Below are positions 26,693 through 61,700 of a stretch of DNA of 64,000 nucleotides, one piece after another. Below the pieces are notes generated by a model. The model was not told the origin of the DNA. It saw only the letters and a list, made by a program, of their open reading frames with translations, and searched no databases. The stretch is from Escherichia coli (GTDB lineage: Bacteria; Pseudomonadota; Gammaproteobacteria; Enterobacterales; Enterobacteriaceae). Within the stretch, counting starts at the first letter, position 1; every line of letters starts with the position of its first letter. Where the stretch lies: NCBI RefSeq assembly GCF_024700885.2, contig NZ_CP117016.1. One strand, written 5' to 3'. Made by a program: the position numbers and the translations under genes.

Positions 26693-28624
26693 ATGAGTTA
26701 TCAGGTCTTAGCCCGAAAATGGCGCCCACAAACCTTTGCTGACGTCGTCGGCCAGGAACATGTGCTGACCGCACTGGCGAACGGCTTGTCGTTAGGGCGT
26801 ATTCATCATGCTTATCTTTTTTCCGGCACCCGTGGCGTCGGAAAAACCTCTATCGCCCGACTGCTGGCGAAGGGGCTAAACTGCGAAACCGGCATTACCG
26901 CGACGCCGTGCGGCGTGTGCGATAACTGTCGTGAAATCGAGCAGGGGCGCTTTGTCGATCTGATTGAAATCGACGCCGCCTCGCGCACCAAAGTTGAAGA
27001 CACTCGCGACCTGCTGGATAACGTCCAGTACGCTCCGGCGCGTGGTCGTTTCAAAGTTTATCTGATCGACGAAGTGCATATGCTGTCGCGCCACAGCTTT
27101 AACGCACTGTTAAAAACCCTTGAAGAGCCGCCGGAGCACGTTAAGTTTCTGCTGGCGACGACCGATCCGCAGAAATTGCCGGTGACGATTTTGTCGCGCT
27201 GTCTGCAATTCCATCTCAAGGCGCTGGATGTCGAGCAAATTCGCCATCAGCTTGAACACATCCTCAACGAAGAACATATCGCTCACGAGCCGCGGGCGCT
27301 GCAATTGCTGGCGCGCGCCGCTGAAGGCAGCCTGCGAGATGCCTTAAGTCTGACCGACCAGGCGATTGCCAGCGGTGACGGCCAGGTTTCAACTCAGGCG
27401 GTCAGTGCGATGCTGGGTACGCTTGACGACGATCAGGCGCTGTCGCTGGTTGAAGCGATGGTCGAGGCCAACGGCGAGCGCGTAATGGCGCTGATTAATG
27501 AAGCCGCTGCCCGTGGTATCGAGTGGGAAGCGTTGCTGGTGGAAATGCTCGGTCTGTTGCATCGTATTGCGATGGTACAACTTTCGCCTGCTGCACTTGG
27601 CAACGACATGGCCGCCATCGAGCTGCGGATGCGTGAACTGGCGCGCACCATACCGCCGACGGATATTCAGCTTTACTATCAGACGCTGTTGATTGGTCGC
27701 AAAGAATTACCGTATGCGCCAGACCGCCGTATGGGCGTTGAGATGACGCTGCTTCGTGCGCTGGCGTTCCATCCGCGTATGCCGCTGCCTGAGCCAGAAG
27801 TGCCACGCCAGTCCTTTGCGCCCGTCGCGCCAACGGCAGTAATGACGCCAACCCAGGTGCCGCCGCAACCGCAATCAGCGCCGCAGCAGGCACCGACTGT
27901 ACCGCTCCCGGAAACCACCAGCCAGGTGCTGGCGGCGCGCCAGCAGTTGCAGCGCGTGCAGGGAGCAACCAAAGCAAAAAAGAGTGAACCGGCAGCCGCT
28001 ACCCGCGCGCGGCCGGTGAATAACGCTGCGCTGGAAAGACTGGCTTCGGTCACCGATCGCGTTCAGGCGCGTCCGGTGCCATCGGCGCTGGAAAAAGCGC
28101 CAGCCAAAAAAGAAGCGTATCGCTGGAAGGCCACCACTCCAGTGATGCAGCAAAAAGAAGTGGTCGCCACGCCGAAGGCGCTAAAAAAAGCGCTGGAACA
28201 TGAAAAAACGCCGGAACTGGCGGCGAAGCTGGCGGCAGAAGCCATTGAGCGCGACCCGTGGGCGGCACAGGTGAGCCAACTTTCGCTACCAAAACTGGTC
28301 GAACAGGTGGCCTTAAATGCCTGGAAAGAGGAGAGCGACAACGCAGTATGTCTGCATTTGCGCTCCTCTCAGCGGCATTTGAACAACCGCGGCGCACAGC
28401 AAAAACTGGCTGAAGCGTTGAGCACGTTAAAAGGTTCAACGGTTGAACTGACTATCGTTGAAGATGATAATCCCGCGGTGCGTACGCCGCTGGAATGGCG
28501 TCAGGCGATATACGAAGAAAAACTTGCGCAGGCGCGCGAGTCCATTATTGCGGATAATAATATTCAGACCCTGCGTCGATTCTTCGATGCGGAGCTGGAT
28601 GAAGAAAGTATCCGCCCCATTTGA
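26693..28624 (+). CDS. dnaX: DNA polymerase III tau subunit (full length); the gamma subunit is made from the same start by -1 frameshifting
   Basis: 643-aa ORF; Walker A GTRGVGKTS, Zn-binding CGVCDNC. Confidence 0.96.
   Translation: MSYQVLARKWRPQTFADVVGQEHVLTALANGLSLGRIHHAYLFSGTRGVGKTSIARLLAKGLNCETGITATPCGVCDNCREIEQGRFVDLIEIDAASRTKVEDTRDLLDNVQYAPARGRFKVYLIDEVHMLSRHSFNALLKTLEEPPEHVKFLLATTDPQKLPVTILSRCLQFHLKALDVEQIRHQLEHILNEEHIAHEPRALQLLARAAEGSLRDALSLTDQAIASGDGQVSTQAVSAMLGTLDDDQALSLVEAMVEANGERVMALINEAAARGIEWEALLVEMLGLLHRIAMVQLSPAALGNDMAAIELRMRELARTIPPTDIQLYYQTLLIGRKELPYAPDRRMGVEMTLLRALAFHPRMPLPEPEVPRQSFAPVAPTAVMTPTQVPPQPQSAPQQAPTVPLPETTSQVLAARQQLQRVQGATKAKKSEPAAATRARPVNNAALERLASVTDRVQARPVPSALEKAPAKKEAYRWKATTPVMQQKEVVATPKALKKALEHEKTPELAAKLAAEAIERDPWAAQVSQLSLPKLVEQVALNAWKEESDNAVCLHLRSSQRHLNNRGAQQKLAEALSTLKGSTVELTIVEDDNPAVRTPLEWRQAIYEEKLAQARESIIADNNIQTLRRFFDAELDEESIRPI
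27976..28016 (+). other. dnaX: dnaX programmed -1 ribosomal frameshift site (slippery heptamer plus downstream stem-loop) yielding gamma
   Basis: A AAA AAG at 27976..27982 in the dnaX frame (codons GCA AAA AAG); the -1 frame reads GAG TGA (Glu, stop) directly after; GC-rich stem-loop CCGGCAGCCGC...GCGCGGCCGG at 27989..28016. Confidence 0.9.
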
Positions 28625-43002: not shown

Positions 43003-45507
43003 TCATTCCTTCGGTTTAAACCGCAGCAACCGGTTGGCGTTACTCACTACGGTAATCGACGAGAGCGCCATTGCCGCTCCGGCGACCACCGGGTTAAGCA
43101 GCGTACCGGTGAACGGCCACAAAATACCGGCGGCGACCGGAATACCGATACTGTTGTAGATAAACGCGCCGAGCAGGTTCTGCTTCATATTGCGCAGCGT
43201 TGCGCGGGAAATCGCGAGCGCATCCGCAACACCCATCAGGCTATGGCGCATCAGGGTAATCGCCGCGGTTTCAATGGCAACATCACTGCCGCCACCCATC
43301 GCAATACCGACATCCGCCTGAGCCAGCGCTGGCGCGTCGTTAATGCCGTCGCCCACCATTGCCACCTGACGTCCTTCACTTTGCAGACGTTTGATCGCTT
43401 CGGCTTTACCGTCCGGCAGCACCCCAGCTATCACCTCATCAATCCCTGCTTCTTTGGCGATCGCATTGGCGGTGGTTGGGTTATCCCCGGTTAGCATCAC
43501 CAGACGATATCCCGCTTTATGCAGGCGTTGCAGCGCCGCCACGCTATCACTACGCAATGGATCGCGTACAGCCAGCAGGGCTACCGCTTTCCCGTCAACC
43601 GCCAGCAGCACAGGCGTTGCCCCTTGCGATGCCTGAGCTGAAATATCTGCCTCAATCGCTTTAGTATCAACTTGCTGGTCATTTAACAGCGCCTGATTGC
43701 CCAGCAATACCGCATGACCTTCAGCTTCACCGCTCACACCCAGCCCGCGCAATGTGCGGAAACCGTTGACCTGCGGTAGCTGCATATCACCTGCTTTATC
43801 GAGGATCGCCCGTGCCAGCGGGTGGCTGGAACCTTGCTCCAGCGCCGCCGCCAGACGCAATGCTTGCGCTTCATCAACATCAGCAAATGTTTTTACTGCG
43901 ACAACCTGCGGCTTCCCTTCGGTCAGCGTCCCGGTTTTATCGAACACCACGGTGTCGAGCGTACTGGCGCGTTGCAGCGCGTCGGCGTCCCGCACCAGCA
44001 CACCAAACTCAGCCGCCCGCCCGACGCCCGAAATAATCGACATCGGCGTCGCCAGTCCCAGCGCACACGGACAGGCGATAATCAGCACCGTGGTGGCAAT
44101 CACCAGGGTATAGACAATCTGCGGTGCCGGACCAAAGAAATACCAGATTGCCGCACTGATCAGCGCAATGACTACCACTACCGGCACAAACACGGCGGAG
44201 ATTTTATCCGCCAGTTGACCGATTTCTGGCTTGCTGCTCTGGGCCTGTCGCACCATGCGAATGATCCGTGACAGCGTAGTATGGCTGCCGACCGCACTGG
44301 CACGAAACAGCACACTGCCGTCCTGTACCACTGTCCCGGCATGGACGCTATCGCCTTCGCCTTTTTGCTGCGGGATAGGTTCGCCCGTCAGCATCGCTTC
44401 ATCCAGCCACGCTTCGCCTTGAGTAATCTCACCATCTACCGGCACACGGTCGCCGGTCGTCAGGCGCAGTAACATACCTGGCTGAACATCTGCCAGCGGC
44501 ACGTTTTTTTCACCTTCGTCAGTGACCAGGCGCGCCGTCGGTGGGGTTAAATCGAGTAATTTCTCCAGCGCCTTAGAAGAACGCTGACGCGCGCGCGCTT
44601 CCAGCATATGGCCGAGATTGATCAGACCGATAATCATCGCGCTGGCTTCGTAATAAAGATGTCGCGCTTCCATCGGGAACCACTGCGGCCACAGGTTGAC
44701 GCTCATCGAATAGAGCCACGCCACGCCCGTACCCAGCGCCACCAGCGTATCCATTGTCGCCGCGCCGTTCAGCAGGCTTTTCCATGCACTGCGGTAAAAA
44801 TGCCCGCCGGCGAAAACCATTACCGCCAGGGTTATCAGGCCGATAACCAACCACAGGCTGCGGTTGTCGGCGGTGACCATCATGTTATCGCCGATCATCC
44901 CCCAGACCATCACCGGGATACCCACCGCCAGTGCGACAATCGCCTGCCAGCGGAAGCGCTTCATCGTAGCGACGGCGGTTTCTTGCTGGCGCTCGCGGCG
45001 TTTAGCGTCATCTTCAATCGCTTCCGCGCCGTAGCCCGCTTTTTCCACCGCCTGCACTAAATCTTGTGGGGAGGCACTGCCCATCACCAGCGCAGTACGC
45101 TCCGCCAGGTTTACCCGTGCCTGAGTGACGCCCGGTACGCTTTGCAACGCATTTTGTACGCGGGTGACACAGCTGGCGCAGCTCATGCCGCTCAGCAGCA
45201 ACTGCTGGCTGTCATCGTCATCGGCGGTCGCTGCCGGAAGCGCCTCAGAAACCGCTGTCAGTGCTTCCGACGGGATTGATGACTCCGCCAGCGGTTTAGC
45301 CTTTGGGTGGCTTACAGATGCGTCATAACCCGCTTGTTTGATGGTTTCGATCAGCTGTTCTGCACTGGCAGTCCCGGTAACGTGCGCTTCAGTGACAGAC
45401 ACATCCGCCTGCTCAACATCCGGGCGCTGTTCGAGACTTTCTTTCACGCGTTTAACGCAGTGACCGCAGGACAGGCCGTCCAGGGTCAGGTCGATAGTTT
45501 GTGACAT
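43003..45507 (-). CDS. copA: Cu(I)-translocating P1B-type ATPase CopA
   Basis: 834-aa ORF; two N-terminal GxxCxxC metal-binding domains, CPC motif, DKTGTLT phosphorylation site. Confidence 0.97.
45301..45307 (-). other. copA: copA programmed -1 frameshift slippery site giving the ~70-aa CopA(Z) chaperone
   Basis: Minus-strand heptamer C CCA AAG spans codons 67-69 (His-Pro-Lys); the -1 frame reads CCC AAA GGC TAA, terminating after Gly70. Confidence 0.75.
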
Positions 45508-45555
45508 AAAACACTCCTTTTAAGACAGTTTTGACTGGCTGTGATAAAGGTTAAA

Positions 45556-45574
45556 CCTTCCAGCAAGGGGAAGG
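45556..45574. promoter_or_regulatory. CueR (MerR-family) operator within the copA promoter
   Basis: Inverted repeat CCTTCC-N7-GGAAGG (CCTTCCAGCAAGGGGAAGG) adjacent to a TTGACC -35 on the copA strand; typical MerR-type long-spacer promoter about 50 bp upstream of the copA ATG. Confidence 0.75.
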
Positions 45575-45769
45575 TCAAGAAATTAATAAACCAGGCGGGT
45601 AAAAGTCCGTAAAGATTAAAAAATCGGCTCGATTTGCATCAGGATTAGACATTTATCTCTTTGTTTTCCTGTAGTTAAGTTGCGGGTGCTAAGTTAAATC
45701 AGGATGCCTGAAAATCGGCACCGGGGTGAGGAATTACCTCCCGCATCTATAAAAAGGAGTTAACAAAAG

Positions 45770-48334: not shown

Positions 48335-49690
48335 ATGGCGCGATTCCAGTTTAAAAGCCGTAAAAATAATGGGTTTATTTTTTTAATAAGTTTTATGGTG
48401 ATGGGAGAGGCTACAATTGCTGCACCGCTGCCACAATGGGCGAACGCCCCAGCGGTAACGCCAGTTGCCCGATTATCTTTACAGGAAAGTATATTACGCG
48501 CCTTTGCGCGAAATCCCGACGTCACTCAACAGGCGGCGCAGATAGGTATTGGCGAAGCGCAAATTGATGAAGCCAAAAGTGCCTGGTATCCGCACGTTGG
48601 ATTAACCGGCAATGCGGGACCGTCCCGACAAACGGACTCCAGTGGCAGGCTTGATAACAACGTTTCGTATGGCATAACCCTGACACAGCTGGTGTATGAC
48701 TTTGGTAAAACTAACAACGATATCAAACTGCAAACTGCCGCCCGTGACAGCTACCGCTTTAAATTGATGGCAACATTAACCGATGTTGCAGAGAAAACGG
48801 CGACTGCCTATATGGAAGTCAGTCGTTATCAGGCTTTGTGCGATGCGGCTCAACGCAATATTCACTCGCTGGAAAACGTCTACAACATGGCGGCATTGCG
48901 CGCTAATGCTGGCCTGAACTCATCGTCGGATGAATTACAAGCCCAGACGCGCATTGCCGGAATGCGCTCAACGCTGGAGCAATATCAGGCGCAGATGGCA
49001 AGCGCCAAAGCGCAACTGGCGGTGCTCACTGGCGTACAGCCGGAGGCGATAGCCGCGCCACCTGCTGAATTAGCCGAGCAGCCGGTATCGCTGAAAAATA
49101 TTGATTACCAGTCCATCCCGCTGGTGCTGGCGGCAGAAAACTTACGCCAGTCAGCACAGTACGGCGTGGAAAAAACGAAAGCGCAATACTGGCCAACGCT
49201 CAGTATTCAGGGGGGCAAAACGCGCTACCAGACCAGTGACCGCTCGTATTGGGACGATCAGTTACAACTGAACGTTAACGCGCCGCTGTATCAGGGCGGC
49301 GCAGTTTCAGCCCAGGTGCAACAGGCTGAAGGGCAACAAAAAATCTCTGCCTCGCAGGTCGAACAGGCAAAACTGGATGTGCTGCAACGAGCGTCTGTGG
49401 CATATGCCAACTGGACAGGCGCACGGGGTCGCGAAGAAGCCGGTTTAGCACAATCCGAAAGTGCGCACAAAACGCGAGATGTGTACCAAAATGAATATAA
49501 ATTGGGCAAACGCAGTCTGAATGATCTATTAACCGTCGAGCAAGATGTCTTTCAGGCGCAATCGGCTGAAATAAATGCCAATTATGATGGCTGGGTCGCC
49601 GCCGTAAATTATGCCGCTGCGGTGAATAACCTTATTCCATTAGCGGGAATTAAACAGGGCTTATACAACGACTTACCCGACTTGAAATAA
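48335..49690 (+). CDS. TolC-family outer membrane factor of a type I secretion system
   Basis: 451-aa ORF with signal peptide (KSRKNNGFIFLISFMVMGEATIA/APLP) and Gln/Ala-rich coiled-coil repeats typical of TolC-family channels; not part of the K-12 backbone at this position. Confidence 0.8.
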   Translation: MARFQFKSRKNNGFIFLISFMVMGEATIAAPLPQWANAPAVTPVARLSLQESILRAFARNPDVTQQAAQIGIGEAQIDEAKSAWYPHVGLTGNAGPSRQTDSSGRLDNNVSYGITLTQLVYDFGKTNNDIKLQTAARDSYRFKLMATLTDVAEKTATAYMEVSRYQALCDAAQRNIHSLENVYNMAALRANAGLNSSSDELQAQTRIAGMRSTLEQYQAQMASAKAQLAVLTGVQPEAIAAPPAELAEQPVSLKNIDYQSIPLVLAAENLRQSAQYGVEKTKAQYWPTLSIQGGKTRYQTSDRSYWDDQLQLNVNAPLYQGGAVSAQVQQAEGQQKISASQVEQAKLDVLQRASVAYANWTGARGREEAGLAQSESAHKTRDVYQNEYKLGKRSLNDLLTVEQDVFQAQSAEINANYDGWVAAVNYAAAVNNLIPLAGIKQGLYNDLPDLK

Positions 49691-49798
49691 TCCTGCCATT
49701 ATTAATATCAGGTATGCCTCGTTGTTAAGTGATTACCTTTGTCTTATTTAGATAAATGGACTCGCTAAGGATATGCGCCATTTATCAGGAATGCCATT

Positions 49799-52700
49799 AT
49801 GAGCCTGATTATTGATGTTATTTCGCGTAAAACATCCGTCAAACAAACGCTGATTAATCCTGGCGACGTCACGGTTGTTATTTATGAGCCTTCCGTGGTG
49901 CAGGTTCATGCTCAGGCCTCTGCCGTTTCGCGTTACGTCCGTGAAGGAAATGACCTGCTGATCTATATGCAGGACGGCACGGTGATCCGTTGCAACGGTT
50001 ATTTCCTGCAAGCGGCGAATACCGCTGAACAATCGGAACTGGTGTTTGCCGATGGGCAACAGCTAACCCATGTCACCTTTGCCGATACTGCTGCGGGTGG
50101 TTTAGCCCCCGTAGAACTGACTGCCCAGACCACTGCGATTGAAAGCATTGCGCCATTTCTTGATACCGTTGCTCAGACCAGCGCCTTCCCGTGGGGTTGG
50201 CTGGCGGGGGCGGCGGTAGGTGGTGGTGCGCTTGGTGCACTGCTGGCAAGCGGTGGTGATGGCGACTCGAAAACGGAAGTGATTAATAACCCTACGCCAC
50301 CCGCTGAGCCTGGCAACGCCACACCATCATTTTTAGTTACCGATAATCAGGGCGATCAGCGCGGCATTCTCGCCACCAATGACATCACCGATGACACCAC
50401 GCCAACCTTTAGCGGCAGCGGGCAGGCGGGGGCGACTATTCAGATTAAAGACAGTAACGGCAATACTATTGCCAGTACTCAGGTAGACAACAACGGTCAC
50501 TGGAGTGTCTCGTTACCCACGCAAAGTGCAGGTGAACATACCTGGTCAGTGGTGCAAATTGTCGGCAGTACCATCACTGACGCCGGTTCGATAACGTTAA
50601 CCATCGACAATAGTCAGGCCAGCGTGCAGGTTGCCACCACCGCAGGCGATAACATTATTAACGCCAGCGAACAGGCCGCCGGGTTTACGCTTTCTGGTAC
50701 CAGTAGCCATCTGGCGCAGGGAACAGAACTCACCGTTACGCTAAACGGCAAAACCTACACCACCAGCGTAGGCGCTAACGGTGCCTGGAGCGTGCAGGTA
50801 CCGACCGCCGATGCGCAGGCGTTAGGCGAAGGGAATCAGGCAGTGCTGGTCAGCGGGAAAGACGCCACAGGCAATACGGTCACCGGCGCGCAGCTTTTAA
50901 CGGTCGATACCCAACCGCCAACGCTTGCCATCAACACTATCGCTCAGGACAACATCGTCAGTGCTGCGGAACATAACGCCGCGCTGGTACTGAGCGGCAC
51001 TTCGAATGCAGAAGCGGGGCAAACCGTAACCCTGACCGTCAACGGGAAAAGCCATTCAGTAACCGTCGGTAGCGATGGAACCTGGCAAGTGACGCTGCCT
51101 GCCACGGAGGTACAGGCACTGGCGGAGGGGAACTACGCTGTCAATGCCAGTGTCAGCGATCGGGCAGGAAACACCACCAGCAACAGCGCGAATTTCACGG
51201 TAGACACCTCAGCACCCGTGGTCAGCGTTAACACCGTGGCGGGCGACGATATTCTTAATAATGCTGAGCAGGCCGTCGCGCAGATCATCTCCGGACAAGT
51301 CAGCGGTGCTTCTCCTGGCGATACGGTAACGGTGAAATTGGGCACTCATGTCCTGACGGGCATTGTGCTGGCAGATGGCAGCTGGAATGTGGCGCTGGAC
51401 CCAGCGGTAACCCGCACGCTGGATCGCGGAGCCAATACGATTTTCGTCACCGTGACAGATACTGCAGGAAATACCGGCGCGGCGTCTCGAGCAATCACGC
51501 TGGTCGGTGTCTCTCCGTTAATCACCATTAACACCGTCTCCGGCGATGACATTATCAGTGGCGCAGAAAAAGGTGCGCCACTGACCCTTACCGGTAGCAC
51601 TCAACAGGCCGAGACAGGACAAACCGTCACAGTAACCCTGGCTGGACAGAGTTTTACTACTACCGTGCAGGCTGATGGCTCCTGGAGTCTGACGGTACCT
51701 GCCGCCGCGATGGGAAATCTGCCTGACGGCGCGGTGGCGATTACCGCTTCTGTGACGGATCTCAGCGGCAATACCGGCAACACCTCTCGCACCATTACCG
51801 TCGACAGCCAGGCCCCGGCCTTAAGCATCGATCCACTGACCGCCGATAACATCATCAACGCCACCGAAAGCGGGCAGGATCTGCAAATCACCGGCACCAC
51901 CGACGCTCAGCCAGGGCAGACGGTGACCGTTACGTTGAATGGGCAGACCTATCAGGGCGTCGTGCAGTCCGACGGCACCTGGAGCGTGACCGTTCCCGCC
52001 GCCAACGTTGGCGCACTGGCTGACGGCAACGCTACGGTCACCGCCAGCGTGAACGATGTTGCCGGTAATCCGAGCAGCGTCTCACGCGTGGCGCTGGTCG
52101 ATGCCACGCCGCCGGTGGTAACCATTAATCCGGTGGCGACCGATAACGTCATCAACACGCCGGAACACACCCAGGCGCAAATCATCAGCGGCACGGTTAC
52201 TGGCGCTCAGGCGGGCGATATCGTCACCGTGACGCTGAATAATGTGGATTACACCACGGTGGTGGATGGTTCCGGCAACTGGAGTCTGGGTGTTCCGGCT
52301 TCCGTTGTCAGCGGACTGGTGGATGGCAGTTATCCGATCAACGTGTCAGTGACTGACCGCGCCGGAAACACGGGCAGCCAGTCACTGACTGTCACGGTCA
52401 ATACCGCCGCGCCAGTAATTGGTATTAACACCATTGCTGGCGATGATGTGATAAACGCCAGCGAAAAAGGGGCTGATGTCCAGATTACCGGTACCAGCGA
52501 TCAGCCAGCCAATACCGCCATCACCGTGACGCTGAACGGGCAAAATTACACCACCACGACCGACGCCTCCGGCAACTGGAGCGTCACCGTTCCGGCATCG
52601 GCGGTAACCGCACTGGGCCAGGCCAACTACACGGTAACGGCGGCGGTGACGAGTAATATCGGCAACAGCGCCACCGCCAGCCATAACGTGCTGGTTGACA

Positions 52701-55700
52701 GCGCGCTGCCCGGCGTGACCATTAACCCGGTGGCAACCGACGATATTATTAACGCCGCCGAAGCGGGCGTCGCGCAAACCATCAGCGGGCAGGTGACTGG
52801 AGCCGCCGTTGGCGACGCGGTAACCGTTACGCTGGGTGGCAATACCTACACCACCACCGTACAGCCGGGATTAAGCTGGAGCGTGAGCATTCCGGCGGAC
52901 GCTATTCAGGCGCTGGGTAATGGCGATTTAACGGTGAGCGCCTCGGTCACCAATCAAAACGGCAACACCGGCAGCGGCACGCGGGATATCACCATCGACG
53001 CCAATCTGCCCGGTCTGCGGGTCGATACGGTGGCAGGCGATGATGTGGTCAATATCATCGAGCACGGGCAGGCGCTGGTGGTCAGCGGCAGCAGCTCGGG
53101 GCTGGCTGAAGGCACGCCGCTTACCGTTACGATTAACAATGTGGAATACACCACTGCGGTGCAGGCCGATGGTAGCTGGAGCGTGGGCGTCACGGCGGCG
53201 CAGGTTAGCGCCTGGCCTGCGGGAACAGTAACGGTTACCGTGTCCGGGGAAAGTAGCGCCGAAAATCCGGTGAGCATTACGCATCCGGTTATGGTCGATC
53301 TCACTCCGGCGGCGATCACCATCAACACCATCGCCACGGATGATGTGATTAACGCCACAGAAAAAGGCGCTGATTTAACCCTTTCCGGCACCACCACTAA
53401 CGTAGAATCCGGTCAAACCGTCACCGTCACCTTTGGCGGGAAAAATTACACTGCCAGCGTGGCGAGCGATGGTAGCTGGGCTGCCACCGTTCCCGCCGCC
53501 GATCTGGCAGCATTACCAGAGGGCAGCGCCTCCGCGCAGGCCAGCGTCAGCAATATTAACGGCAATAGCGCCTCGGCGGTGCATAACTACAGCGTCGACA
53601 GCAGTGTCCCGACCATCATTATCAATACCGTTGCCAGCGACAATATCGTCAACGCCAGCGAAGCCGATGCGGGTGTGACGGTGAGCGGCAGCACCACTGC
53701 CGAGGCAGGGCAGATTGTTACGATAACGCTCAATAGCCCGACCGTGCAGACGTATCAGGCAACGGTACAGGCCGACGGTAGCTGGAGTATTAATATTCCG
53801 GCGGCAGATCTTGAGGCATTGACCGATGGCAGCCACACCCTGACCGCCACGGTCAATGACAAAGCAGGCAACCCGGCGAGCACCACGCATAATCTGGCGG
53901 TGGATCTCACCGTTCCGGTACTCACCATCAACACCATTGCGGGCGACGATATTATTAACGCCGCCGAACACGGGCAGGCGCTGGTGATTTCCGGTTCCAG
54001 CACTGGCGGAGAAGCGGGGGATGTCGTCACCGTCACGCTAAACAGTAAAACCTACACCACGACGCTGGATGCCTCCGGCAACTGGAGCGTCGGCGTTCCG
54101 GCGGCGGATGTCACGGCGCTGGGCAGCGGCCCGCAAACTGTCACCGCCAGCATTACCGACGCGGCAGGCAATAGCGATGATGCCAGCCGCACGGTTACAG
54201 TGAATCTGACCGCGCCGACCATTGGCATTAACACCATCGCCACCGATGACGTGATTAACGCCATCGAAAAAGGCGCGGATCTGCAAATTTCCGGCACCAG
54301 TAATCAGCCAGCTGGCACCACAATTACGCTGACGCTGAACGGGCAAAATTACACTGCCACGACGGACGCCGCAGGCAACTGGAGCACCACGGTGCCAGCC
54401 TCCGCCGTCAGTGCGCTGGGCGAAGCCAGTTATACGGTGACGGCGAATGTCACCGACAGCGCGGGTAACAGTAATTCCGCCAGCCATAACGTGCAGGTGA
54501 ATACCGCACTGCCTGGCGTCACCCTTAATCCGGTGGCGAGCGACGACATTATTAACGCCGCCGAATCGGGCGTGGCGCAGACCATCAGCGGGCAGGTGAC
54601 GGGCGCGGCGGCGGGCGATACGGTTACCGTAACGCTTGGCGGGAAAACCTACACCACTACCGTGCAGGGCAATTTAAGCTGGAGCGTGGGCGTTCCGGCG
54701 GCGGATATTCAGGCCATCGGCAATGGCGACCTGACAGTTAATGCCTCGGTGACCAACGGCGTTGGTAATACCGGCAGCGGTTCGCGAGATATTACTATCG
54801 ACGCTAATTTGCCTGGCCTGCGCGTCGATACCGTGGCGGGCGATGATGTGGTCAACAGCATCGAGCACGGTCAGGCACTGGTGATAACCGGTAGCAGCAG
54901 CGGGCTGGCGGCGGGCGCGGCGCTGACGGTGGTGATCAATAACGTCACCTACGGCGCGACGGTATTAGCCGATGGTACATGGAGCCTTGGCGTTCCAGCG
55001 GCAGATGTGGGCAACTGGCCTGCGGGTACGGTGAATATCACGGTTTCAGGTGCCACTAGCGCAGGAAACCCGGTCACTATCACCCATCCGGTCACCGTCG
55101 ATCTGGCGGCGGTGGCGATCTCCATTAACACCGTTTCCGGCGACGATGTGATTAACGCCGCCGAAAAAGGGGCAGATTTAACCCTTTCCGGCAGCACTTC
55201 CGGCGTGGAAGCGGGACAAACCGTCACCGTCACCTTTGGCGGTAAAACCTACACCGCCACCGTAGCGGGCGATGGTAGCTGGACAACCACCGTACCCGCC
55301 GCCGATCTCAGCGCGTTACGCGACGGCGACGCCACGGTACAGGCCAGCGTCAGCAATATTAACGGCAACACGGCTTCGGCGACCCACGCCTACAGCGTCG
55401 ATGCCACGGCACCGACGCTTGCCATTAACACCATCGCCACTGACGATATTCTGAACGCCGCCGAGGCGGGCAATCCGCTAACCATCAGCGGCAGTAGCAC
55501 CGCCGAAGCGGGGCAGACGGTAACTGTCACGCTTAATGGCGTGACTTACACCGGCACCGTCCTGGCGGACGGGAGCTGGAGCGTCAGCGTGCCGACGGCG
55601 GATCTCAGCAATCTGACCGCCAGCCAGTACACGGTCAGCGCCTCGGTAAGCGATAAAGCGGGTAACCCGGCAACCGCCACTCATGGGCTGGCGGTGGATC

Positions 55701-58700
55701 TCACCGTTCCCGTATTAACCATCAACACCGTCTCCGGCGATGACATTATTAACGCCGCCGAACACGGGCAGGCGCTGGTAATCTCCGGTTCCAGCGCTGG
55801 CGGCGAAGCGGGCGATGTCATCACCGTTACGTTAAACAGTAAAACCTATACCACCACGCTGGACGCTTCCGGCAACTGGAGCGTCGGCGTTCCGCTGTCA
55901 GATGTCACTGCGCTGGGCAGCGGCCCGCAAACCATCACAGCTACCATTACCGACGCGGCAGGCAACAGCGATGATGCCAGCCGCACGGTCACCGTGAATC
56001 TCACCGCGCCAACCATTGGTATCAACACTATCGCCAGCGATGACGTGATTAACGCCACGGAAAAAGGCGCGGATCTGCAAATTACCGGCACCAGTAATCA
56101 ACCCGCAGGCACCACAATAACGGTGACGCTGAACGGGCAAAATTACACCGCGACGACCGATTCCTCCGGCAACTGGAGCGCCACGGTGCCTGCCTCGGCA
56201 GTTAGCGCGCTGGGTGAGGCCAATTACACGGTAACCGCCGCCGCTACTGACGCCGATGGCAACAGCGGTTCCGCCAGCCATAACGTACAGGTTAATACCG
56301 CGCTGCCTGGCGTCACCATTAACGTGGTGGCAACGGACGATATTATTAACGCTGCCGAAGCAGGGACAGATCAAACTATCAGCGGGCAGGTGACGGGGGC
56401 TACGGCAGGCGATACGGTGACCGTCACGCTCGGCGGGGCGACTTACACTGCCACGGTGCAGGCGAATTTAAGCTGGAGCGTCGATGTTCCGGCCTCCGCG
56501 CTACAGGCGTTGGGCAACGGTGAGCTGACCATTTCGGCTTCGGTAACGAACAGCGTAGGCAATACCGGTAACGGCACGCGTGAAATCACCATCGACGCGA
56601 ATCTGCCCGGTCTGCGGATTGACACCGTGGCGGGCGATGACGTGGTCAATATTATCGAGCACGGACAGGCGCTGGTGATTACCGGCAGCAGCTCCGATCT
56701 GGCAGCGGGCAGCAACGTCACGCTGACCATTAACGGGCAAACCTATGTTGCGGCGGTACTGGCGGATGGCTCATGGAGCGTCGGCGTTCCGGCGGCAGAT
56801 GTCAGCGCCTGGCCTGCGGGGACGGTCACAATTACGGCGAGCGGCAACACCACCGCCGGAAATCCGGTCAGCGTTACGCATCCGGTGACTGTCGATCTCA
56901 CTGCGGTGGCGGTCAGCATCAACGCCATTACTGCCGATGACGTGATTAACGCTGCCGAAAAAGGCGCGGCGTTAACGCTCTCTGGCAGCACTTCTGGTGT
57001 GGAGGCCGGGCAAACGGTCACCGTCACCTTTGGCGGCAAAACTTACAGCGCCACGGTGGCTGCGAATGGTTCCTGGAGCACCTCGGTTCCGGCGGCAGAT
57101 ATGGCGGCCCTGCGTGATGGCGATGCCAGCGCACAGGCCAGAGTCAGCAATGTTAACGGCAACAGCGCCACCACTACTCACGCTTACAGCGTCGATGCCA
57201 GCGCGCCAACGGTGGCCATTAACACTATTGCAGGCGACGATATTCTTAACGCCGCCGAAGCGGGTGCTGCGCTGACTATCACTGGCAGCAGCACGGCGGA
57301 AGCGGGGCAGACGGTGACCGTCACCCTCAATGGCGAAAACTATACTGGCACGGTTCAAACGGACGGTAGCTGGAGCGTCAGCGTACCGCCAGCCGACTTA
57401 AGCGCCCTGACCGCCAGCAACTACACCGTTAGTGCGGCGGTGAGCGACAAAGCCGGAAACCCGGCCTCGGTTAATCACAACCTGACGGTGGATACGTCTG
57501 TTCCGGTTGTCACCATCAACACGGTGGCGGGCGATGATGTGATCAACGCGACGGAACACGCCCAGGCGCAGATTATCAGCGGCTCCGCCACGGGTGCGGC
57601 AACCGGCAGCACCGTGACGGTGACTATCGGCAGCACCACCTTCACCACCGTGCTGGACGCCAGCGGTAACTGGAGCGTCGGCGTTCCGGCAAGCGTCGTC
57701 TCGGCGCTGGCGAACGGCACGGTGACCATTAACGCCAGCGTCACCGATGCCGCCGGAAACAGCGGCAGCGCCACGCATCAGGTGACGGTCAATACTGGCC
57801 TGCCGTCAATTACCTTTAACGCCATCAGCGGCGATAACGTCCTGAACGCCGATGAAAAAGGCCAGCCGTTGACCATTAGCGGTAGCAGTACGGGGCTGGC
57901 GACGGGCGCGCAGGTCACCGTCACGCTCAACGGTCATAACTACAGCGCCACCACCGACGCGGCGGGCAACTGGACCTTAACCGTGCCGGTGAGCGATCTG
58001 GCGGCTCTGGGTCAGGCCAACTATACCGTCAGCGCCAGTGCCACCAGTGCGGCGGGTAACACCGCCAGCAGCCAGGCGAATTTACTGGTCGATAGCGGCC
58101 TGCCGGGCGTTACCATCAACACCGTGGCGGGCGATGATATTATCAACGCCGCCGAAGCCGGGGCCGATCAAACCATCAGCGGGGTGGTGACTCGCGCCGC
58201 CGCTGGCGATACGGTCACCGTGACGCTGGGCGGCAACACTTACACAGCGCAGGTTCAGCCCGATTTAAGTTGGAGCGTCACCGTTCCGGCAGACGATTTA
58301 CAGGCGTTGGGCAATGGCGATTTGACCATTAACGCCTCGGTTACCAACGCGAATGGCAACACTGGCAGCGGCTCGCGGGATATCACCATTGATGCCAACC
58401 TGCCGGGTCTGCGCGTGGATACCGTGGCGGGCGATGATATCGTCAACAGTATCGAGCACGGGCAGGCGCTGGTGATCACCGGCGGCAGTAGCGGCCTGAA
58501 TGCAGGTGCTGTGCTGACGGTTACCATCAACAGTGTGGCGTATTCCACCACGGTACAGGCGGACGGGAGCTGGAGCGTTGGCATTCCGGCGGCAAACGTC
58601 AGCGCCTGGCCTGCGGGGCCGTTAACCGTTGAAGTTACAGGACAGAGCAGCGCCGGAAACCCAGTCAGCGTCAGCCATCCGTTCACCGTCGATTTAACGG

Positions 58701-61700
58701 CGGTGGCAATCAGCATCAACACCGTTGCCAGCGATGACGTAATTAACGCCGCCGAAAAAGGCACTGGTCTGACCCTTTCCGGCAGCACCAGCGGGATTGA
58801 AAGCGGGCAAACCGTTACCGTCACTTTTGGCGGTAAAACCTACACTGCAAGCGTCGCCGCCAACGGTAGCTGGAGTGTGAACGTTCCAGCGGCAGATCTG
58901 GCAACTCTGCCAGACGGCGCGGCGAACGTGCAGGCTAGTGTCAGCAGCGCGAGCGGTAACAGTGCCTCGGCGACCCATGCGTATAGCGTTGACGCCAGCG
59001 CACCGACGCTCACCATTAACACCATTGCCAGCGACGATATTCTTAACGCCACGGAGGCGGGAAGCCCGCTCACCATCAGCGGCACCAGCACCGCCGAAAC
59101 CGGGCAGACGGTCACCGTGACCCTTAACGGCGCAACCTACACCGGCAATGTGCAGGCGGACGGTAGCTGGAGCGTCAGCGTTCCCACTTCAGCCCTGGGC
59201 GTGCTAAGTGCAAGCAATTACACCGTCAGCGCCACGGTCAACGACAAAGCGGGCAACCCCGGCAGCGCCAGCCATAATCTGGCGGTAGACACCACCGCGC
59301 CGGTTCTCACCATTAACACCGTGGCGGGCGATGACATCATCAACGACGCCGAACACGGGCAGGCGCTGGTGATTTCTGGCACCAGCACGGGCGGGGAAGC
59401 GGGCGATGTGGTGAGCGTTGTGCTCAACGGCAAAACCTACACCACCACCCTGGATGCCTCCGGCAACTGGAGCGTTGGCGTTCCGGCGGCGGATGTTACG
59501 GCACTGGGTAGCGGCGCACAGACCATCACCGCCAGCGTCAGCGATCGGGCGGGTAACAGCGATGACGCCAGCCGCACCGTGACCGTCAGCCTCAGCGCGC
59601 CAGTGATTAGCATCAACACCATCGCGGGCGATGATGTGATCAACGCGACGGAAAAAGGATCTGATCTGGCGCTTTCCGGCACCAGCGATCAGCCTGCGGG
59701 TACGGCGATCACCGTCACCCTGAACGGACAAAACTACAGCGCCACTACCGACGCCTCCGGCAACTGGAGCGTCACCGTGCCCGCCTCGGCGGTCAGTGCG
59801 CTGGGCGAAGCCACCTACAGCGTCACGGCGAGCGTTACCAATGCTCAGGGTAACAGCAGCACCGCCAGCCATAACGTGCAGGTCAATACCGCGCTGCCGG
59901 GCGTCACCATTAATCCGGTGGCGACGGACGATATTATCAACGCTTCAGAGGCGGGCAGCGCGCAAACTATCAGCGGCCAGGTAACCGGTGCGGCGGCGGG
60001 TAGCATCGTCACCGTTGAACTGGGCGGTAAAACTTACACCGCCACCGTCCAGCCAGATTTAAGCTGGAATGTGAGCGTACCAGCCGCCGACTGGCAGGCG
60101 TTAGGTAATGGTGAGTTAACGGTTAATGCCTCGGTAACCAACGCCGTTGGCAACACCGGTAGCGGCACGCGCGATATCACCATCGACGCCAGTCTGCCTG
60201 GCCTGCGGGTGGATACCGTTGCAGGCGATGATGTGGTCAATATCATCGAACATGCTCAGGCGCAGGTGATTACTGGCACCAGCTCTGGCTTTGCGGCGGG
60301 CACGGCGCTGACGGTGGTGATAAATAACCAAACTTATGCCGCCACGGTGCTGGCGAATGGTACCTGGAGCGTCGGCGTACCGGCGGCGGATGTCAGTAAC
60401 TGGCCTGCGGGAACGCTGAACATTACCGTTAGCGGCGCGAACAGTGCCGGAACGCAAACCAGCATTACCCATCCGCTGACAGTTGATCTCAGCACTGTCG
60501 CCGTCAGCATAAACAGCATCACCAGCGATGATGTGATTAACGCCGCCGAAAAAGGCGCGGCATTAACGCTCTCCGGCAGCACGTCCGGCGTCGAAGCGGG
60601 GCAAGCCGTTACCATTACTTTTGGCGGTAAAACCTACACCACCACGGTGGCGGCAAACGGTAGCTGGAGCACCACCGTTCCGGCGGCGGATATGGCGGCC
60701 CTGCGTGACGGCGATGCCAGCGCCCAGGTGCGGGTGACTAACGTCAACGGCAACAGCGCCACGGCAACGCATGAATACAGCGTCGATAGCGCCGCGCCAA
60801 CGGTGACCATCAATACCATTGCCAGTGATAACATCATCAACGCCAGCGAAGCGGCGGCGGGCGTGACGGTATCCGGCACCAGCACGGCGGAGGCAGGGCA
60901 GACGCTGACCGTCACGCTTAATGGCACTAACTACCAGACCACGGTGCAGGCAGACGGCAGCTGGAGTTTAACGCTGCCCGCCAGCGACTTAACCGCACTT
61001 GCCAATAACGGCTACACCCTGACCGCCACGGTCAGCGATTTGGCGGGTAACCCTGGCAGCGCCAGCAAAGGTGTGACCGTCGATACCACCGCGCCCGTCA
61101 TCAGCTTTAACACCGTGGCGGGCGACGATGTGATTAACAACGTTGAACACACTCAGGCGCAGATTATCAGCGGCACCGCCTCGGGCGCGGTGGCGGGCGA
61201 CCGCCTGGTGGTGACCATCGCCGGGCAGCAGTATGTCACCAGCACCGATGCCAGCGGCAACTGGAGCGTTGGCGTGCCTGCCAGCGTGATTTCCGGCCTT
61301 GCGGACGGCACAGTGACTATCAGCGCCACTGTCACCGATAGCGCAGGCAACAGCAGCACGCAGACGCACAACGTGCAGGTGAACACGGCGGCAGTGTCGC
61401 TCTCGGTCAGCACCATCAGCGGCGATAACCTTATTAACGCCGCCGAAGCAGGCAGTGCGCTGACCCTGAGCGGCACCGGAACGAACTTTGCCGCAGGTAC
61501 AGTAGTGACCGTGTTGCTTAACGGCAAAGGCTACAGCGCTACCATTCAGAGCAACGGGAGCTGGAGCGTGAACGTGCCGGCGGCAGACGTTGCGGCGCTT
61601 GCCGATGGCACCAGCTACACGGTCAGCGCTTCCGCCCAGGACAGCGCCGGAAACAGCGCCACGGCTTCGCGCAGTGTGGCGGTGGATCTCACCGCGCCGA

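Follow-up and report, generated by a model that had tools for sequence, protein, structure and literature searches.

Comparative sequence support for the known −1 frameshift cassette of Escherichia coli copA

Introduction

Does the copA gene of Escherichia coli, which encodes a copper pump, also encode a short copper-binding protein by way of a slippery site placed just behind its first metal-binding domain (MBD1)? The original prediction for this locus had named such a product, CopA(Z), and this reading is supported by the identity of the locus, by the published length of 70 aa, and by a product that comprises the first metal-binding domain. We conclude that the locus is almost certainly the known programmed −1 ribosomal frameshift (−1 PRF) cassette of E. 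coli copA. The copA frameshift site is already published and is not new.

Meydan et al. 2017 (Mol Cell 65:207) are said to have found that E. coli makes the CopA(Z) chaperone by −1 PRF in copA, and Drees et al. 2017 (Mol Microbiol 106:635) reportedly obtained CopA(Z) from PRF together with a truncated transcript. According to the published record, E. coli copA shifts efficiently into the −1 frame to give a 70-aa putative chaperone as against the 834-aa full product (PMC5009743), the metal-binding domain used by the frameshift product is the first of two (PMC6747150), and copA carries a slippery sequence with a downstream pseudoknot (PMC7558416). Further papers report frameshifting at copA and the CopA(Z) product (PMC6771820), back the event with ribosome profiling and an independent study (PMC9548414), or otherwise support −1 PRF in copA (PMC6182138, PMC10861913). 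The occurrence and the efficiency of frameshifting, a contribution of the nascent chain to it, and protection against copper by the product are all taken from this literature. The exact heptamer and stems reported below were deduced here from the sequence and the published 70-aa length and are not quoted from Meydan et al. 2017.

Results

The locus, the slippery site, and the product of the −1 frame

The whole stretch of DNA that was analyzed (64 kb; hereafter the window) is E. coli chromosome, and the features discussed here are collected in Table 1. The copA protein scores 1747.8 bits against the NCBIfam equivalog NF007952 (cutoff 1316), and its Pfam architecture consists of two HMA domains, E1-E2_ATPase, and Hydrolase. 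The 601 nt around the frameshift site are 100% identical to copA of many E. coli genomes and were found in 5422 out of 5426 genomes. RefSeq names the matching region copA and lists the 834-aa CDS alone, so the 70-aa product is invisible from the annotation alone.

Table 1. Positions of the copA frameshift features, the copA promoter, and the dnaX slippery site in the window
Feature	Position	Strand	Remarks
copA, copper-exporting P1B-type ATPase	43003..45507	minus	834-aa ORF, zero-frame product, two N-terminal HMA domains
CopA(Z) reading frame	45296..45507	minus	codons 1-69 in frame 0, −1 slip, GGC UAA; ends ...SHPKG
Slippery heptamer C_CCA_AAG	45301..45307	minus	last base of His67, Pro68, Lys69; in frame
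−1 frame stop UAA	45296..45298	minus	one sense codon (GGC) past the slip
Spacer GCUAAA, 6 nt	45295..45300	minus	between heptamer and stem 1; computed distance
Stem 1 5′ arm CCGCUG	45289..45294	minus	partner 45257..45252
Possible 2-bp stem 1 extension, 5′ side CG	45286..45287	minus	past a 1-nt mismatch
Stem 2 5′ arm GUCGGAAGC	45263..45271	minus	within stem 1 loop; partner 45241..45233
Possible 2-bp stem 1 extension, 3′ side UG	45259..45260	minus	RNAalifold
Stem 1 3′ arm CAGCGG	45252..45257	minus	partner 45294..45289
Stem 2 3′ arm GCUUCCGGC	45233..45241	minus	partner 45271..45263
copA promoter: TTGACC, 19-nt spacer, TAACCT, dyad ACCTTCC/GGAAGGT	45548..45578	minus	MerR-type CueR operator
dnaX slippery site A_AAA_AAG, then GAG UGA	27976..27982		same window

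On the minus strand, positions 45312..45295 read AGC CAC CCA AAG GCT AAA, which encodes Ser66 His67 Pro68 Lys69 Ala70 Lys71 of copA. The heptamer has the sequence and the register that had been claimed for it at codons 67-69: It starts at gene offset 200 (200 mod 3 = 2), the X_XXY_YYZ register, and both tRNAs can re-pair in the −1 frame, as is canonical for −1 PRF. It had also been placed right after the first metal-binding domain, and it indeed lies 5 residues past MBD1 (HMA residues 8-62). The −1 frame, CCC AAA GGC TAA, ends after one further codon, and the 69 zero-frame residues plus one Gly add up to 70 aa, in agreement with the MBD1-only polypeptide of about this length that was expected. 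A −1 product of 70 aa requires a shift within copA nt 185-209, where CCCAAAG is the sole heptamer. By reading, no Shine-Dalgarno-like sequence was seen in the 16 nt upstream of the heptamer.

CopA(Z) is a single HMA domain (PF00403, residues 8-62, 52.1 bits vs. a cutoff of 24.8) that contains the Cu(I) site motif CxxC as C14-G-H-C17. Its best NCBIfam match is the N terminus of CopA, and CopZ families come next (E = 1.7e-16 and 5e-10). The product itself falls short of the cutoffs set for the CopZ families NF047957 (60.4 vs. 85 bits), NF033794 (39.4 vs. 95), and NF033795 (38.1 vs. 91); CopZ and HMA chains in the PDB also match it.

Upstream of the gene, the copA promoter contains an inverted repeat (45555-45561 / 45569-45575), and a sigma-70 scan with 16-18 nt spacing returned nothing at this promoter. 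Its link to CueR is one that we take from established knowledge of the cue regulon.

Conservation of the site among copA genes

Close relatives of copA were gathered by protein look-ups and by a metagenome pattern scan, in which metagenomic copA was retrieved with an upstream protein pattern of 10 letters that excludes the site itself. C_CCA_AAR in frame with a −1 stop exactly one codon later is present in 16 out of 16 Enterobacterales copA 5′ regions, and all 98 evaluable distinct metagenomic sequences likewise have an in-frame C_CCA_AAR and a one-codon −1 tail; the related sequences compared are not phylogenetically independent. The Enterobacterales loci that keep the site range down to ∼50% N-terminal protein identity. 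Contigs that were too short or that had obvious assembly indels (L121, L130, L131, L164, and L190) were omitted from the counts or the alignment. The invariance of the heptamer and the one-codon −1 stop (114 out of 114) is accounted for by slippage alone.

We found no conserved equivalent of the cassette in 74 distant CopA loci outside Enterobacterales, an outgroup that came from a whole-CopA protein scan of genome contigs; the scan returned mostly distant P-type ATPases and only three close loci. This comparison shows a restriction of the cassette to copA of the Enterobacterales type. Polymorphism within E. coli does not discriminate between the element and its surroundings, the numbers of identical genomes being 5348 for the 77-nt element, 4559 for the upstream flank, and 5385 for the downstream flank.

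These counts bear on the possibility that the short CopA(Z) arises mainly from a separate truncated copA transcript, with the RNA structure serving truncation or processing and with frameshifting playing a minor part. We consider this improbable. A short copA transcript does exist alongside PRF, as the title of Drees et al. states, but Drees et al. describe both mechanisms jointly and not as alternatives, and an mRNA cut short before any stop codon could not be the source of a defined 70-aa protein. A scan of the copA strand past the frameshift site turned up no intrinsic terminator, and the presence of an in-frame heptamer with a one-codon −1 stop in every one of the 114 sequences argues for frameshifting as the source of the product.

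Selection at the level of codons

Out of the 16 Enterobacterales sequences, all have CCA as the Pro codon of the site, vs. 6.5% of Pro codons elsewhere, and 13 have AAG as the Lys codon, vs. 12% of Lys codons elsewhere. The preference for CCA and AAG may have reasons at the tRNA level. In all 16, the codon before the site ends in C, across six codon types (encoding His/Phe/Tyr/Leu/Ser); the next zero-frame codon has U as its third base, whether it encodes Ala, Pro, Ser, or Thr, as compared with 18% U at four-fold sites elsewhere; and alignment column 67 is NNA, whether the residue is Thr, Ala, Glu, or Ser. Farther downstream, third codon positions are near-invariant in the pseudoknot stems and variable in the loops, and the rare Leu codon CUU is found in the 3′ arm of stem 2 in 11 of the 16 sequences (11% elsewhere). 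These patterns point to purifying selection at the nucleotide level, beyond what the protein would require, as expected of a −1 PRF cassette. The comparison as a whole, including the pseudoknot data below, shows that the heptamer, the position of the −1 stop, and the two pseudoknot stems are all under strong selection.

The downstream pseudoknot

The original prediction had pointed to 45250..45300 as a region where downstream structure on the minus strand might be sought. An H-type pseudoknot with covariation support is predicted there, at 45294..45233 on the minus strand, 6 nt past the heptamer, with a stem 1 of 6 bp (+2 bp of possible extension) and a stem 2 of 9 bp. A covarying structure with a spacer of this length is in keeping with canonical −1 PRF, in which the structure lies ∼5-9 nt past the heptamer.

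Because the two stems were defined on E. coli copA itself, the percentages of paired cells are inflated, but the compensatory changes are unaffected: Overall, 94.6% and 95.2% of base-pair cells are paired, and 7 out of 15 pairs show compensatory changes. None of 500 shuffles reached the observed values, and slid controls were 21%-57% paired. In stem 1, 99.4% of cells are paired over 60 distinct sequences, and three of the six pairs vary on both sides, with U-A in place of C-G in 14 sequences among these changes; in the 8-bp helix of stem 2 the paired fraction is 94.4%, and three pairs vary on both sides. In MAFFT alignment A3, the 3′ arm of stem 2 is misplaced in one sequence (L092) by a one-codon insertion; this was left as it is, and the pair counts are therefore conservative.

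RNAalifold recovers stem 1 independently, together with its extension (columns 33-64, C-G in 60/60; columns 34-63, A-U in 48 and G-U in 10), and stem 2 is also present in the single-sequence MFE fold. The nested-only MFE fold of the region, from a program that cannot model pseudoknots, does not exceed shuffled sequences in stability (z = −0.85). Rfam seems to contain no family for the copA element: In 44900..45700 no match came near any gathering score, the best (14.5 bits) belonging to an unrelated family.

Conservation of this kind could also reflect a protein-level need for the linker between MBD1 and MBD2 (H-P-K-A-K-P-L...SEALTA...LPA), the heptamer and the arms being by-products. The stems do overlap conserved linker residues (P-L ... 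S/P-E-A-L-T-A ... L-P-A), and some of the conservation may serve the protein. This reading is nevertheless very improbable, since synonymous positions are fixed against codon bias (the CCA and AAG codons of the site), the bases of the heptamer and of the −1 stop are kept while flanking amino acids change, and paired positions change together, as in the C-G to U-A replacement.

Frequency of the heptamer in the window

The bare sequence CCCAAAG is not over-represented in the window, where it occurs four times vs. 7.55 expected; the other three copies are in the wrong register or antisense to a gene. An in-frame X_XXY_YYZ heptamer (Y = A/U) is present in 14 out of 27 long ORFs of the window, and among these 14 only copA and dnaX, which we take to be the two known −1 PRF genes of E. 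coli, have N_NNA_AAG followed by a −1 stop one codon later. The unusual feature is the full configuration and not the bare heptamer. Transcriptional slippage is supported by homopolymers far longer than the runs of C and A found here, each of only three bases. The count of four copies would suit a functionless chance occurrence of the heptamer, but both this and an origin of the short product in transcriptional slippage by RNA polymerase are scarcely credible in view of the universal in-frame conservation, the adjacent −1 stop, and the covarying pseudoknot, and external ribosome profiling favors a translational event (PMC9548414).

Discussion

Taken as a programmed −1 frameshift, the locus would work as follows. 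Ribosomes would translate MBD1 and arrive at C_CCA_AAG, where CCA is paired with tRNA-Pro in the P site and AAG with tRNA-Lys in the A site, while the pseudoknot 6 nt downstream, at the mRNA entrance, would resist unwinding. A fraction of the ribosomes would slip back by one base, their tRNAs re-pairing with CCC and AAA, and would then read GGC (Gly), stop at UAA, and release the 70-aa, single-HMA CopA(Z), which may serve the cytosol as a Cu(I) chaperone in the manner of CopZ. The remaining ribosomes, which stay in frame, would make the 834-aa pump, so that one copper-induced, CueR-controlled mRNA would yield pump and chaperone in a set ratio.

In two lineages the cassette has another place. 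The three-HMA copA of Photorhabdus (L004) and of a metagenomic relative (L088) carries it after the second HMA domain, and the predicted product there is therefore a 140-aa tandem two-domain chaperone and not a 70-aa CopA(Z). We know of no description of a two-domain frameshift product of copA. The cassette (C_CCA_AAR, one-codon −1 tail, and pseudoknot) may perhaps be a movable unit that is placed before the last HMA domain, a view that we put forward tentatively and with some doubt.

The copA frameshift explains the source of a copper chaperone in E. coli, which has no copZ gene. Only three programmed frameshifts are well characterized in E. coli genes that are not mobile, namely those of copA, dnaX, and prfB (PMC10861913). 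The present case indicates that a true recoding site can be recognized from raw sequence. The comparative numbers assembled across Enterobacterales for the invariant heptamer, the invariant tail of one codon, and the covarying pseudoknot leave existing knowledge of copA frameshifting unchanged; they could be a template for similar cassettes.

Comparison with known systems

With the published E. coli copA/CopA(Z) system we find no difference: The gene, the organism, the −1 shift, the lengths of 70 and 834 aa, the use of the first MBD, and the pseudoknot are the same. The comparative detail worked out here consists of the invariant one-codon tail, the stem coordinates, and the three-HMA lineages with the site after the second HMA.

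Stand-alone CopZ/Atx1-like chaperones, such as CopZ of Enterococcus hirae and Bacillus subtilis, resemble CopA(Z) in having ∼70 aa, one HMA (ferredoxin-like) domain, and CxxC. They differ from it in that CopA(Z) scores under the curated CopZ family cutoffs and is closest to CopA itself. CopA(Z) works like CopZ, yet by descent it is a CopA N-terminal domain.

The nearest parallel within the window is dnaX (tau/gamma of DNA polymerase III). Like copA, it is a chromosomal −1 PRF gene whose heptamer ends in A_AAG, with the single tRNA-Lys of E. coli, and it shares a −1 stop one sense codon past the slip, a truncated product, and a stimulatory downstream RNA structure. In dnaX the slippery site is A_AAA_AAG, stimulated by a Shine-Dalgarno-like sequence upstream and accompanied by a stem-loop downstream, whereas copA has C_CCA_AAG and a pseudoknot.

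The same 2017 paper by Meydan et al. reportedly proposed −1 PRF in human ATP7B, the copA orthologue, with a similar slippery site and pseudoknot. That frameshift was later shown to be a reporter artifact, with neither profiling nor conservation in its support (PMC9548414). Conservation of synonymous sites and of the heptamer, which ATP7B lacks, is present on both counts at the bacterial copA site.

The copA frameshift site and its product

The window is E. coli chromosome. The ORF that holds the slippery heptamer encodes a protein scoring 1747.8 bits against the NCBIfam CopA equivalog (cutoff 1316), in which two HMA domains precede the P-type ATPase core. A 601-nt stretch surrounding the site shows 100% identity to annotated copA from many complete E. 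coli genomes, and a genome search matched this region in 5422 out of 5426 E. coli genomes. The neighboring genes (ybaP, the ybaQ toxin-antitoxin pair, glsA, and ybaT) are consistent with this assignment. Four of the 5426 genomes have no match to the copA 5′ region; of the matches in complete genomes, two are on plasmids rather than the chromosome.

The minus-strand sequence of 45312..45295 is AGC CAC CCA AAG GCT AAA (Ser66-His67-Pro68-Lys69-Ala70-Lys71), so that the heptamer has the sequence and register given for codons 67-69 in the original prediction. The −1 frame across it is CCC AAA GGC UAA, the predicted stop after a single codon being read directly from the sequence. The ∼70-aa polypeptide foreseen, limited to the first metal-binding domain (HMA, residues 8-62), computes to exactly 70 aa and ends in SHPKG. 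After CopA itself, the next-best family matches of this product are CopZ chaperones, all under the curated cutoffs; it is therefore CopZ-like in action but stands outside the CopZ families.

Features of the copA region and of other frames in the window
Feature	Coordinates	Strand	Description
copA ORF	43003..45507	minus	834 aa
copA promoter	45548..45578	minus	TTGACC and TAACCT hexamers, 19-nt spacing
Promoter dyad	45575..45569, 45561..45555		ACCTTCC/GGAAGGT, perfect, 7 nt
copA heptamer	45307..45301	minus	C_CCA_AAG, X_XXY_YYZ register
Stem 1 (S1)	45294..45289, 45257..45252	minus	CCGCUG with CAGCGG
Stem 2 (S2)	45271..45263, 45241..45233	minus	GUCGGAAGC with GCUUCCGGC, 5′ arm within S1 loop
dnaX	26693..28624	plus	643 aa
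dnaX heptamer	27976..27982	plus	A_AAA_AAG, in frame; −1 frame continues GAG UGA
ORF after ybaT	48335..49690	plus	451 aa
Giant open frame	ATG 49799 to beyond window end (64000)	plus	at least 4734 aa

The dyad spans the promoter spacer, the architecture of promoters activated by MerR-type regulators (here CueR). A standard sigma-70 scan did not detect this promoter because its spacer is long. Beyond ybaT, the giant open frame is about 60% GC, compared with about 50% nearby, and its sequence is repetitive and Ig-like or adhesin-like. Another E. coli strain has cueR almost directly after ybaT at the corresponding position. The region 48335..64000 looks like a strain-variable island, possibly encoding a type I secretion outer-membrane component and a giant repetitive adhesin.

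Conservation among relatives

A genome scan yielded three close and 77 more distant CopA loci, and protein look-ups a further twelve, with N-terminal identities of about 50-89%. In this first set, all 16 Enterobacterales-type sequences have the in-frame heptamer after an HMA domain (C_CCA_AAG in 13, C_CCA_AAA in three) and a −1 stop exactly one sense codon past it. Metagenomes supplied 120 loci through a DNA pattern for a 10-residue protein motif ∼150 nt upstream of the frameshift site and independent of it; 98 out of 107 distinct sequences were evaluable, the remainder being too short or disrupted in frame by indels of the assembly. The same heptamer and one-codon tail occur in all 98 (AAG in 97, AAA in one). 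Outside Enterobacterales, 74 distant CopA loci yielded no conserved equivalent of the cassette. Among E. coli genomes the element does not exceed both flanks in invariance: it is identical in 5348 genomes, the upstream flank in 4559, and the downstream flank in 5385.

A rival reading makes a short transcript (Drees et al.) the main route to CopA(Z), the 70-aa product; such a transcript is complementary to frameshifting at most, since it leaves the invariant heptamer and stop unexplained, and a terminator scan found no intrinsic terminator after the site. Many database matches to the CopA N terminus are 100- to 290-aa fragments (L082, L086, L087, L088, L091, and L093 among the collected loci), the result of gene calling that breaks copA up wherever the assembly contains an indel. 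Such short entries are mostly artefacts and no evidence for CopA(Z). One fragment entry (P0093) carries the source label "copper chaperone CopZ."

Codon choice at the site departs strongly from that elsewhere in the same 16 sequences. The Pro codon is CCA in 16/16 (6.5% of Pro codons elsewhere) and the Lys codon AAG in 13/16 (12%). The preceding codon always ends in C, through six codon types encoding His, Phe, Tyr, Leu, and Ser (elsewhere, C makes up about 33% of four-fold sites), and the following codon always in U, across Ala, Pro, Ser, and Thr (18% U at such sites); it is this U that gives the −1 frame its UAA or UGA stop.

Two copA genes with three HMA domains, from Photorhabdus caribbeanensis (L004:1001-1900) and a metagenome (L088:209-1042), have a C_CCA_AAA heptamer, one-codon tail, and pseudoknot all after the second domain. 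Their position predicts a 140-aa two-domain frameshift chaperone; of all the results, only this one may extend past what is published.

A downstream pseudoknot

The structure sought on the minus strand around 45250..45300 is present: an H-type pseudoknot starts 6 nt past the heptamer, S1 and S2 lying within 45294..45233. A nested-only minimum free energy fold gives the S2 hairpin alone, no more stable than shuffles (z = −0.85), as expected from a program unable to represent pseudoknots. The element has no counterpart among Rfam families. RNAalifold, blind to the proposed structure, recovers S1 and adds two pairs to it (45287-45286 with 45260-45259). With stems defined on the E. coli sequence and relatives that are not phylogenetically independent, 94.6% of cells are paired in the 16-sequence alignment and 95.2% among 60 distinct sequences, 7 of 15 pairs being changed on both sides in each. 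None of 500 shuffles reaches the observed values in the smaller alignment (slid registers, 21-49% paired); in the larger, none does on four of five measures and 3/500 do on further pair types (slid registers, 22-57%). S1 is 99.4% paired in the latter, with a C-G to U-A swap in 14 sequences.

The stems coincide with conserved linker residues, and conservation could reflect a constraint on the linker peptide itself. The compensatory changes in the stems and the synonymous sites contradict that reading: Third codon positions are near-invariant in stems and freely variable in loops. A rare NNA codon occupies alignment column 67 in 16/16, across four amino acids, and a rare CUU codon the stem region in 11/16 (11% elsewhere); both are retained where pairing requires them. 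At the frameshift site, selection acts on the RNA rather than the protein.

The anatomy is that of a textbook tandem-slippage cassette. P-site tRNA-Pro would slip from CCA to CCC and A-site tRNA-Lys from AAG to AAA, while the pseudoknot, held 6 nt downstream by the spacer, sits where the mRNA enters its channel; slipped ribosomes would add Gly and terminate, freeing the first metal-binding domain as a 70-aa HMA protein. E. coli has a single tRNA-Lys, whose pairing with AAG is weak, and its tRNA-Pro for CCA also reads CCC; these two facts would account for codons so strictly chosen against the usual bias.

Comparison with known systems

Efficient −1 frameshifting in E. coli copA yields a 70-aa putative chaperone besides the 834-aa product (PMC5009743), and CopA(Z) contains the first of two metal-binding domains (PMC6747150). 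Efficiency depends on the slippery sequence, the pseudoknot, and the nascent chain (PMC7558416), and in single-molecule assays ribosomes stall at the copA pseudoknot (PMC6182138). Ribosome profiling and Drees et al. 2017 support the copA frameshift; the parallel claim for human ATP7B was an artefact (PMC9548414). The well-characterized chromosomal cases are copA, dnaX, and prfB (PMC10861913).

A 70-aa −1 product demands a shift within copA nt 185-209, where CCCAAAG is the sole heptamer; the site is therefore the published one, already known and not new. Every factual statement made about it is confirmed, and its interpretation as the CopA(Z) frameshift is supported.

Origin of the heptamer by chance, or transcriptional slippage, is contradicted by the conservation of the site and the shortness of its homopolymer runs. 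Bare CCCAAAG is not above chance in the window (four copies, 7.55 expected), and 27 long ORFs hold 14 in-frame X_XXY_YYZ heptamers (Y = A/U). The full configuration is unusual: among these 14, only those of copA and dnaX, the two known −1 frameshift genes of E. coli, combine an A_AAG ending with a −1 stop one codon further on. The dnaX heptamer is the classical site of the other known E. coli −1 programmed frameshift (gamma subunit), and the two genes are alike in their one-codon −1 tail.
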